The notes beneath the pieces were generated by a model. That model was not told the origin of the DNA, did no database searches, and saw only the letters and a program-made list of their open reading frames with translations. Below, in pieces: positions 62,241 to 64,000 of a stretch of 64,000 bases of DNA (its first letter is position 1; every line of letters begins with the position of its first letter). The stretch is from an uncultured Spirochaetaceae bacterium (GTDB lineage: Bacteria > Spirochaetota > Spirochaetia > Treponematales > Treponemataceae). The stretch lies in assembly GCA_902783155.1 (NCBI GenBank), contig CACZPR010000079.1, positions 24,339 to 88,338 of the forward strand, in the 5' to 3' direction. The translations under genes and the position numbers were made by a program.

Positions 62241-64000
62241 ATGAAAAAAAGATTTGTGTGCTTGAAAAACTTGGTACGGGGGGGGGGTATTACTTCCCCT
62301 GTTTCTGATTCTATCCTGCGAAAACTTTTTTAACGGTGCCGACCTTAGAAAAGAGATTGAGGACCAGGTCGCGCTTGCAAACGCCCCATACTTCCAGATT
62401 CTTCTTGATGGCTCCAGAGGAAAATTTTCACCGCCAAAGGGACAGCACCAGCTGAAGGTGACACAGAGCATGGACATCTCCTTTGAGAGCGATTTGGACT
62501 TCCAGTTTATCCGCTGGGAGGTTTTCAACACAAAAACAGGCGGGACCATAGACTCCACCGAATACATCGAGATTTCCGACCCATACAGCGACAAGGCATC
62601 TATAAAACTTTTGAAGGAACCGACCCCGGATATGCCGCTTGGTGTCAGGAGCGTGGTTATGGAGAGACCGCAGATTATATCGTACACGCCAATCACGACG
62701 GGAATGCTTAAGGACACTACAATCCAGGTTTTGTTCAACCGCGACATGGATCCGTCTTCCATCTATTATACCGACAACGAGATTTCTTCTCTGGAGGATG
62801 AAGGTGTTAGAACCTTTCTGCCAACTGATGGCGCAAAAAAATACGGACACATAAAGGACGGCAAAACCTATTTCAAGAACATATTAATCACAAATAAAAA
62901 GACAGGCCAGAACATCAACGACTGCTTCGAAGGTCCGTGTTTTGATGACGCAAGCACACTTTCAATCTCGGCCAGCAAAAACGGAGGGCATGTCATTGAC
63001 GACTACACGCAGGTTCTTGTCCGGCTGGAGAAGGGATTTTTCTACACGGTGCAGGGAAAGCCTGTCGAGATGGCGGGAAGCAAAATGTGGATGTACCAGG
63101 TCAACAGTGAGACCGACACACAGCCCCTTGTGGTTTCAAAATCCGGTGACAATGATTTGTTCTCTGCAAAAATCGACGGCACGGTGCAGCTTTCAAAAGA
63201 GGCATCCCACACAATCGGCACAGGCGGAACTGGATTTGACACTTTGAAATTTTTGAAAAACGGAAAGCTAAATCTCGACATCCGTGTGCAGGATCAGATT
63301 GGTGGATCGGGACCAAACTCTTTCTTCATGCTAAATATAAAGAAAATCTACGGAGAAAACTATGCGGAACTGGAGGCTGCCAATCAGACGGAGCATAGCC
63401 TGAAAATTGATTTCCAGAATGTCACATCGGAGGAAGGAACTTTCAAGGGGACCATAGATTTTGCGGAGGAGAAACTGAGCCTTGACGATGGAGTATATGA
63501 AATGAATTTCGACTTCAAGGACAGAAGCAACAATTCCATGACATACCCGAGTGGCGGAAATTTTTATTTCGCTGTGGACACAAAGGTTCCCGAAATCAGC
63601 ATACCGACAGTAAGCAGTTCGAACAGCACCACATACACTCTCGCCTGGTCCGACTATATTGATTTGAAAAATACGGAAATCATTTACGGTGAGACAGGCT
63701 CCACGATGACAAGCTCGGGACCGATTGCGAAGGGAACTGTGTCGGGAGACATAACGGACATTAGATTTGGCAAGGCTTATGATGTGAAAGTAAAATTCAC
63801 TGACTATGCAGGAAATGAAGTTGAAAAGACCATCCCGAAATTCCTTACAGGATTTGAGCTTACGGGAACTCCAGATTTTACAGGCGTGAATGCAAGCCAC
63901 GCAGATAACGTCTTCCTTGTTGGAGACAAAATTGCTGATTACGGAATTACAGCGAAAAAGTATTATTCGGATGGAAGTTCGGTTGATATAACTTCAAATT
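62241..64000 (+). pseudogene. Large surface lipoprotein, paralog 3, frameshifted at a poly-G tract (phase-OFF state); 3' end beyond the window
   Basis: ATG 62241 reads MKKRFVCLKNLVRGGGITSPVSDSILRKLF-stop. With one G fewer it reads MKKRFVCLKNLVRGGVLLPLFLILSCENFFNGADLRKEIEDQVALANAPYFQ... I translated that frame codon by codon from 62287 to 63999 and found no stop. Confidence 0.8.
62278..62287 (+). repeat. Poly-G tract, 10 G, out of frame
   Basis: GTACGGGGGGGGGGTATTA was counted directly (3 G at the end of one sequence block plus 7 G at the start of the next). Confidence 0.9.

Follow-up and report, generated by a model that had tools for sequence, protein, structure and literature searches.

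A probable poly-G slippage switch in the signal-peptide codons of a rumen Treponema lipoprotein family

The stretch of DNA analyzed here (referred to as the window; 64,000 nucleotides of contig CACZPR010000079.1 from an uncultured Spirochaetaceae bacterium) carries three paralogous lipoprotein genes, paralogs 1, 2, and 3, whose signal-peptide codons contain a run of G residues. The run has nine G's in paralog 2, whose start codon is in frame with the mature protein (ON), and ten in paralog 3, whose start codon is not (OFF); in paralog 1 it is interrupted by an A, and the gene is in frame. Considering the anatomy of these tracts together with the reading frames and tract lengths of relatives, we regard this run of G's as probably a real slippage, or phase-variation, switch in this lipoprotein family, and we hold with somewhat less confidence that G10 is the true majority state of paralog 3 in the present assembly.

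In the mechanism that we propose, the poly-G run in the Arg-Gly-Gly codons of the signal peptide would serve as a simple-sequence contingency switch, in which slipped-strand mispairing at replication adds or removes one G. With G9 or G12 (in the present subfamily), the ATG would be in frame with the lipobox Cys, and an exported, lipidated surface protein would be made; with other lengths, such as the G10 of paralog 3, translation would end after 30 codons, and starts further downstream would give no signal peptide. Paralog 2 would accordingly be read as ON and paralog 3 as OFF yet intact, and paralog 1 would have lost its switch by the G-to-A interruption and be constitutively in frame. Switching of this kind would be expected to be reversible within a clone and to act on surface-exposed proteins, for which phage, host immunoglobulin A (IgA), or substrate attachment could be the selective agent.

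RESULTS AND DISCUSSION

Poly-G length sets the reading frame

Direct reading gave CGGGGGGGGGGT, i.e., CG(10)T, at 62277-62288 in paralog 3, CGGGGGGGGGT, i.e., CG(9)T, at 58046-58056 in paralog 2, and CGGGGAGGGGT at 53645-53655 in paralog 1 (Table 1). This agrees with an earlier note on this DNA, which had counted nine and ten G's in paralogs 2 and 3 and had described the same codons of paralog 1 as broken by an A (GGGGAGGGG). The G9 and G10 tracts start 37 nucleotides (nt) after the ATG, inside the open reading frame (ORF) and near its 5' end, and are long enough to slip (at least about 7). As the note had also stated, the G10 frame of paralog 3 ends after 30 codons (MKKRFVCLKNLVRGGGITSPVSDSILRKLF, with the stop codon TAA at 62331-62333). 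Removal of one G yields MKKRFVCLKNLVRGGVLLPLFLILSCENFFNG and a frame that stays open to base 64000, the end of the window; the note was right about this opening but, by a small counting error, gave its length as 571 rather than 586 codons. Behind the Cys codon at 62317, the other two frames contain 25 and 32 stops, versus none in the 561 codons of the coding frame. The earliest in-frame start past the tract of paralog 3 is GTG 62458, 47 codons beyond the Cys, and because it falls after this residue, no signal peptide is possible from a downstream start.

Within the 64 kb, runs of at least seven G's or C's occur at just three sites, namely, the tracts of paralogs 2 and 3 and a G7 at 25538. G9 runs per se are only mildly unexpected (shuffle mean, 0.61 matches; observed count reached in 7 of 100 shuffles), and what stands above chance is the homologous position within the leader codons and the comparative behavior of the tract, rather than the mere presence of G9. 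Since GGG is the least-used Gly codon (12%) and GGGGGG encodes 1 of 101 Gly-Gly pairs in the ORFs of the window, the tract is not a by-product of codon usage.

Table 1. Tracts, reading frames, genes, and promoters of the three paralogs in the window
Feature	Position	Strand	Description
Paralog 3 tract, G10	62278..62287	+	Codons 13-16 of leader; lipobox and mature protein not in the frame of the ATG; OFF
Paralog 3 truncated frame	62241..62333	+	30 codons, from an ATG preceded by a Shine-Dalgarno sequence to TAA
Paralog 3 mature open frame	62317..64000	+	Lipobox Cys (CENFFNG...) to window edge; 561 codons, 0 stops
Paralog 3 promoter	62186..62214	+	CTTACA-17-TATAAT, TG extended -10; followed by A7 (62217-62223) and GGAGC ribosome-binding region (62226-62240)
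Paralog 2 tract, G9	58047..58055	+	In frame (R-G-G-V); ON
Paralog 2 gene	58010..60829	+	Intact lipoprotein of 939 amino acids; lipobox LITSC (Cys codon 58085), immunoglobulin (Ig)/fibronectin type III (FN3)-like array, C-terminal DUF6273
Paralog 2 promoter	57956..57984	+	CTTACA-17-TATAAT, TG extended -10; A6 run at 57987-57992
Paralog 1 interrupted ("locked") tract, GGGGAGGGG	53646..53654	+	In frame
Paralog 1 gene	53609..57154	+	Intact lipoprotein of 1181 amino acids; C-terminal DUF6273
Paralog 1 promoter	53554-53582	+	CTTACA-17-TATAAT type, TG extended -10

Uninterrupted tracts go with out-of-frame genes

Homologous loci, here given L numbers, came from two sources. Genome and metagenome contigs were scanned for motifs, with conserved mature-region peptides that are blind to the tract, and this yielded L003-L048; these tract-blind loci together with the window paralogs form the counted set. 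Exact-protein look-ups, which are biased to one tract length, yielded L001, L002, and L049-L061, and these were used for allelic series only. A gene was scored as ON when inspection found a start codon that gives a plausible signal peptide in frame with the lipobox Cys. A classifier that demanded a Shine-Dalgarno match (p = 0.15) miscalled several tract-less genes as OFF and was replaced by this inspection.

Genes with an uninterrupted G tract of at least 6 were OFF in 10 cases and ON in 5, and those with an interrupted, short, or absent tract were OFF in 1 case and ON in 22 (Fisher's exact p = 5.9e-5). The tract-bearing OFF genes are paralog 3 (G10), L005 (G10), L006 (G9), L007 (G11), L011 (G10), L015 (G6), L018 (G9), L031 (G8), L034 (G8), and L036 (G7), and the tract-bearing ON genes are paralog 2, L004, L010, and L035 (all G9) and L039 (G8). 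The lone OFF gene of the second class, L024, has GGGGAGGGG and lacks one base of the A run that follows its ATG. The OFF:ON ratio of 10:5 is exactly the 2:1 expectation for a freely drifting tract length. Gene calls at the protein level follow this pattern: many database entries of the family start at an internal Met or carry a nonsense N terminus that runs into ...RGG/DGGG...FTSC (P0004, P0005, P0010, P0015, P0023, P0051, and others).

When metagenome contigs were scanned for the exact leader pattern of the paralogs (ATGAAAAAAAGATTTGTG...AACTTTTTTAACGG), no match was obtained. Other copies of the paralog 3 leader were sought by a look-up of the DUF3800 protein encoded upstream of paralog 3, which returned no record and no paralog 3 allele from the same strain.

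The same DNA string, ACTATACTTTTGAC (protein TILLTGG), precedes the tract in many diverged subfamilies, about 20-40 nt before the Cys codon (L003, L006, L008, L011, L013, L015, L016, L031, L034, L036, L039, and L045). Given this recurrence, the leader cassette is kept at the nucleotide level far outside the group of paralogs 1-3.

Tract length differs between nearly identical loci

The earlier note had proposed a comparison of tract lengths in related strains, and such lengths do differ at near-identical loci. At the MKKGQILLITILLT locus, four contigs with near-identical flanks have tracts of G5 (L051; ON, TGGI), G6 (L015; OFF), G7 (L002; OFF), and G8 (L050; ON, TGGGI). In the MKKRFVCLKNLV group, which has one promoter type, the tract is G9 in L004 (ON), G10 in L001 (OFF), and G12 in L049 (ON, with an extra Gly), and the mature proteins of L004 and L049 are 99% identical. 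The paralog 3-type leader, which has G10 in the window, has G9 in L059, and in L060 the contig breaks off within the tract. Directly after trkA, the position occupied by paralog 1, four other samples have G9 behind the same promoter where the window has GGGGAGGGG, which indicates that the "locked" state of paralog 1 is derived.

Length variation also occurs at the second poly-G locus. There, a TTGACA/TATATT promoter (25525-25553; 11 of 12 consensus matches) has G7 (25538-25544) within its 17-nt spacer and is located upstream of an ORF (25617-26612) for a 331-amino-acid protein with a signal peptide, for which a Pfam scan gave no match. Two other assemblies, about 98.5% identical over 1.7 kb and encoding an identical protein, have G9 (spacer of 19) and G10 (spacer of 20); hence, strains of this organism that are very close to one another differ in poly-G length. 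By its layout, this locus is a candidate for a transcriptional phase-variable promoter like that of Treponema pallidum tp0126.

Selection on OFF alleles and alternative explanations

Several points weigh against a switch. Across four assemblies of the same strain or a near-identical one, the G9 of paralog 2 does not change, which means that short divergence leaves the consensus length stable; the exact-protein look-ups, being length biased, can show neither stability nor instability. All four sampled members of the paralog 3 lineage are OFF, three by G10 (paralog 3, L005, and L001) and L024 by the deletion of 1 nt from the A run behind its ATG. In the OFF contigs L001 (2.4x coverage) and L002, the frame is broken a second time, further downstream, which could be due to low assembly quality or to early decay. 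Finally, the G10 of the window could be a single homopolymer miscall.

More broadly, an assembly or sequencing artefact would mean that the true length at 62278 is G9, that paralog 3 is intact and expressed, and that the variation between contigs consists of homopolymer miscalls. Homopolymers of at least 9 are error prone, and the low coverage and second frame break of L001 would fit, as would a contig that terminates within the tract (L060) and one in which a paralog 3-type leader has G9 (L059). We nevertheless consider this explanation unlikely, as G10 recurs in the same leader of two more contigs (L005 and L001) and the sequence past the tracts is unbroken for about 2-3 kb. Moreover, 10 of the 15 tract genes, which come from many independent projects, are out of frame, compared with 22 of the 23 tract-less relatives that are in frame; an artefact is not credible here because the consensus error rate would need to be two thirds. 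The window itself is densely coding and contains no other split genes, and the peptidase U32, LPD3, TrkH, and TrkA genes upstream of the paralogs are equal in length to those in the syntenic contigs L049 and L053, so that a generally frameshift-prone assembly is unlikely.

That paralog 3 is a dead or dying duplicate, with G10 as its first inactivating mutation, appears very unlikely. It would be in line with the uniformly out-of-frame state of the sampled lineage, with the interrupted tract plus separate 1-nt deletion of L024, and with ratios of nonsynonymous to synonymous divergence (dN/dS) of 0.32-0.38, which exceed the 0.10-0.20 of some ON comparisons. However, paralog 3, L005, and L024 have no stop or frameshift in the 561-663 codons past the tract at a dS of up to 0.21, and all dN/dS values between OFF alleles are well below 1: 0.32 for paralog 3 versus L005 (both G10; dS of 0.21 over 552 codons, no stop), 0.38 for paralog 3 versus L024, 0.36 for L015 versus L002, and 0.28 for L005 versus L001. 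Long open frames together with dN/dS values of about 0.3 imply that the OFF alleles are under purifying selection and not in neutral decay. In addition, the promoter, ribosome-binding site, and leader of paralog 3 are 89-96% identical to those of the active paralog 2. The preference of the earlier note for slipped-strand ON/OFF phase variation over gene decay is thus supported by tract-linked frame breaks, the length series, and dN/dS. Further inactivating mutations downstream in orthologs, which it had named, alongside a fixed G10, as a sign against switching, are absent past the tract in L005 and L024; L001 does have its second break.

We give only a slight chance to decoding of the out-of-frame tract without a change in the DNA, by RNA polymerase slippage or ribosomal frameshifting, in which case "OFF" would stand for reduced expression. 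This would account for the conservation of the OFF alleles, and long homopolymers can provoke transcriptional slippage. Productive transcriptional slippage is, however, best documented on A/T runs; the sequence offers no specific support for it, and hairpins between the tract and CCCU are no more stable than those of shuffled controls. Such decoding is compatible with DNA-level switching. The chance that the G run is kept solely to meet a need for Gly-Gly in the signal peptide, with no role in switching, is close to negligible: Gly is kept there in many tract-less relatives (e.g., LSGVGL and LGSGL), but the run uses the rarest Gly codon and is lengthened by the flanking codons (CGG and GTA), and a requirement on the protein would not account for two thirds of the tract genes being out of frame.

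Relation to known contingency loci

Phase variation by homopolymer slippage is textbook knowledge in mucosal pathogens and, in Treponema, is known for the syphilis agent. By analogy, the mechanism proposed for paralogs 2 and 3 would be a standard translational contingency locus, nearest to the genic poly-G of Neisseria pilC. As in Neisseria pilC, pglA, lgtA, and hmbR, a poly-G of at least 9 lies in the 5' coding region and would turn translation ON or OFF by slippage of plus or minus 1, with paralogs that switch independently. Unlike those genes, the paralogs belong to another phylum, encode an unrelated protein (an Ig-like lipoprotein with DUF6273) in a rumen commensal rather than a human pathogen, and are known here from sequence. 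The pilC tract is said, after work by Jonsson et al. in 1991, to lie in signal-peptide codons. The gene is listed as having a genic G(9-20) tract (PMC5953494).

In T. pallidum, poly-G tracts of 7-11 at tprE/G/J/F/I/L and tp0126 vary within isolates and control putative outer-membrane proteins, and the tp0126 tract sits between the boxes at -35 and -10 (PMC7864442). The genus and the poly-G are shared with the window, and the spacer tract at 25538 resembles tp0126. In contrast, the T. pallidum tracts that have been studied act mainly on transcription from the promoter, whereas those of paralogs 1-3 lie in the ORF, downstream of CTTACA-17-TATAAT, and act on the frame, which differs from a promoter switch of the T. 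pallidum type; the protein families are also unrelated.

The phasomes of Campylobacter and Helicobacter comprise many contingency genes with poly-G/C or CT repeats near the 5' end, ON:OFF mixtures, and tract-interrupted "locked" alleles, and they have been validated by colony and read-level data. The present family resembles them in its 5' homopolymers, ON:OFF mixtures, and "locked" alleles, but the organisms and proteins are different. With Treponema denticola TvpA and the phage tentaclins, which are variable proteins of diversity-generating retroelements (DGRs), it would have in common a Treponema lipoprotein or receptor-binding protein whose distal domain may be a variation-tolerant, ligand-binding fold. 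Unlike in those systems, however, the window gave no template repeat for the 3' ends (a blastn search with the last 700 nt of paralogs 1 and 2 yielded no template-like copy), and one family member does not differ among four samples. The window, most ORFs of which were not domain scanned, also showed no reverse transcriptase. The family is therefore not a demonstrated DGR target; a remote DGR elsewhere in the genome is possible.

A literature search that took in DUF6273 and, for Treponema (with rumen species and Treponema phagedenis among those covered), both lipoproteins and phase variation returned no account of this family as phase variable and no account of homopolymer phase variation in rumen or gut commensal treponemes. 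The type of switch is ordinary and well known; what would be new is its occurrence in a gene family of gut commensal Treponema. If confirmed, poly-G contingency loci would be a genus-wide strategy that includes nonpathogenic, fiber-associated spirochaetes, and the family would provide a defined set of population-switched surface proteins that might serve as phage receptors or adhesins or be targeted by IgA. Annotation should then also change, as the two thirds of such genes in public metagenome-assembled genomes (MAGs) that are called as N-terminally truncated or aberrant would otherwise pass for pseudogenes.

The lipoprotein products

All three ORFs begin with MKKRFV..RGGV..L(I/L)(L/T)SC-ENFFNG, a lipoprotein signal peptide with a lipobox. 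Sequence inspection distinguishes a basic n-region, a hydrophobic h-region, and the lipobox ending in Cys (MKKRFVWWKNIVRGGVLFSLLLITS followed by C); this Cys is invariant across 34 aligned family members. Pfam DUF6273 is C-terminal in paralogs 1 and 2 (E value of 3e-15), where it spans 56495-57151 and 60183-60826, respectively. In some family members, FGE-sulfatase (PF03781) replaces DUF6273.

The AlphaFold model of paralog 2 (mean predicted local distance difference test [pLDDT] score of 87) is a chain of beta-sandwich domains, and a fold search with the full-length model retrieved generic Ig/FN3 arrays (LILRB, contactins, and the SiiE adhesin, among others). When the PDB was searched by sequence, with paralog 2 or a family profile, the matches were FN3-like and weak only. 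The C-terminal 300 residues were modelled at a pLDDT of 93, and their sole significant PDB match was 9qa6, the Thomasclavelia ramosa IgA protease (ThomasA), of which residues 31-322 are the N-terminal DUF6273 domain. In phage tentaclins, DUF6273 is reported to be a DGR target domain, and it has been likened to C-type lectins (PMC10743442); the lectin-like label is taken from that work and not from the structure search done here. All homologues come from Treponema MAGs of the rumen and ruminant gut. The closest match among GTDB representatives, which do not include the window itself, has 75% amino acid identity. The products are multidomain Ig/FN3-like lipoproteins and presumably bind ligands at the surface of a rumen Treponema.

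Promoters and A runs

Each of the three paralogs has a GGAG ribosome-binding site in addition to its promoter (Table 1). The earlier note had proposed that the A6 and A7 runs downstream of the -10 boxes of paralogs 2 and 3 are a second length-variable tract. The difference between the two is real, but the length is constant within each paralog lineage: each of the five paralog 2 promoter assemblies has A6, and paralog 3, L005, and L024 have A7. Because the A run begins 3 nt past the -10 hexamer, it cannot alter the -35/-10 spacing. A6/A7 was thus rejected as a second switch, being downstream of the -10 and a fixed difference between paralogs.

A downstream CCCU can pair with the G run, and a consensus scan flagged this as terminator-like. 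An RNA hairpin or terminator formed in this way was rejected, as its stability does not exceed that of shuffles (z = -0.93, 0.03, and 0.35 for paralogs 3, 2, and 1, respectively).

The A7 run right after the ATG (62244-62250 and 58013-58019) is also length variable among relatives. L053-L056 (at about 6004) have A8 and a compensating 1-nt loss 25 nt further on, which places nine leader codons in another frame (MKKKICVLERLIRGG versus MKKRFVCLKNLVRGG), and L024 (at about 1130) has lost the G after this run and is out of frame.

Locus organization and possible paralog exchange

The promoter, leader, and first approximately 65 codons of paralogs 2 and 3 (57913-58210 versus 62143-62440) are 89-96% identical, and the gene bodies are about 45-80% identical. 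In L059, the paralog 2 promoter (A6) is joined to the paralog 3-type leader with G9. This hybrid and the closely similar 5' ends suggest either that a 5' cassette has undergone gene conversion or that the assembly is chimeric across the repeat.

Comparison of window positions 53500-64000 with L049 and L053 marks the site downstream of trkA/trkH as a hotspot. In related MAGs it contains one family gene, with a PDDEXK_2 gene before it in L049 and a leucine-rich repeat protein after it in L053. In the window it contains the three paralogs, between which lie a 70-amino-acid ORF together with a PIN_3 toxin gene (57269-57894) and also a DUF3800 gene (61371-62132); L051, too, has such a pair of 70-amino-acid ORF and PIN gene ahead of a family gene. 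It is conceivable, though we regard it as rather doubtful, that rumen treponemes vary their surface in several layers, namely, by independent poly-G switches in a shared, gene-converted promoter-leader cassette, by mosaic recombination of paralog bodies and copy-number expansion next to trkA, and through a distal DUF6273 domain of the type mutated by DGRs. If this were true, a commensal population would vary an adhesin or receptor family, perhaps escaping phages or salivary IgA, and a poly-G "phasome" spanning the genome would characterize Treponema as a genus and not T. pallidum alone.

Short strings located just downstream of paralogs 1 and 2 (57174-57205 and 60846-60869) recur at 61280-61327, before the DUF3800 gene, with 91-96% identity over 24-32 nt. 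Contig L052, which comes from the same strain, matches the window at 99.93% identity across 7.2 kb (54403-61606) and departs from it past 61606, within the DUF3800 gene. Four of its five differences fall in the last third of paralog 2 (59866-60443), and it has a TAC-to-TAA change at 60325 by which paralog 2 is cut to 771 amino acids.

Elsewhere in the window, three large ORFs without a Pfam match (1251-4949, 17404-19077, and 19080-21404) contain internal tandem repeats, with units of about 420 nt (1460-3460), 9 nt of the QETQE type (17861-18119), and about 225 nt (19179-20840), and may encode further repetitive surface proteins.

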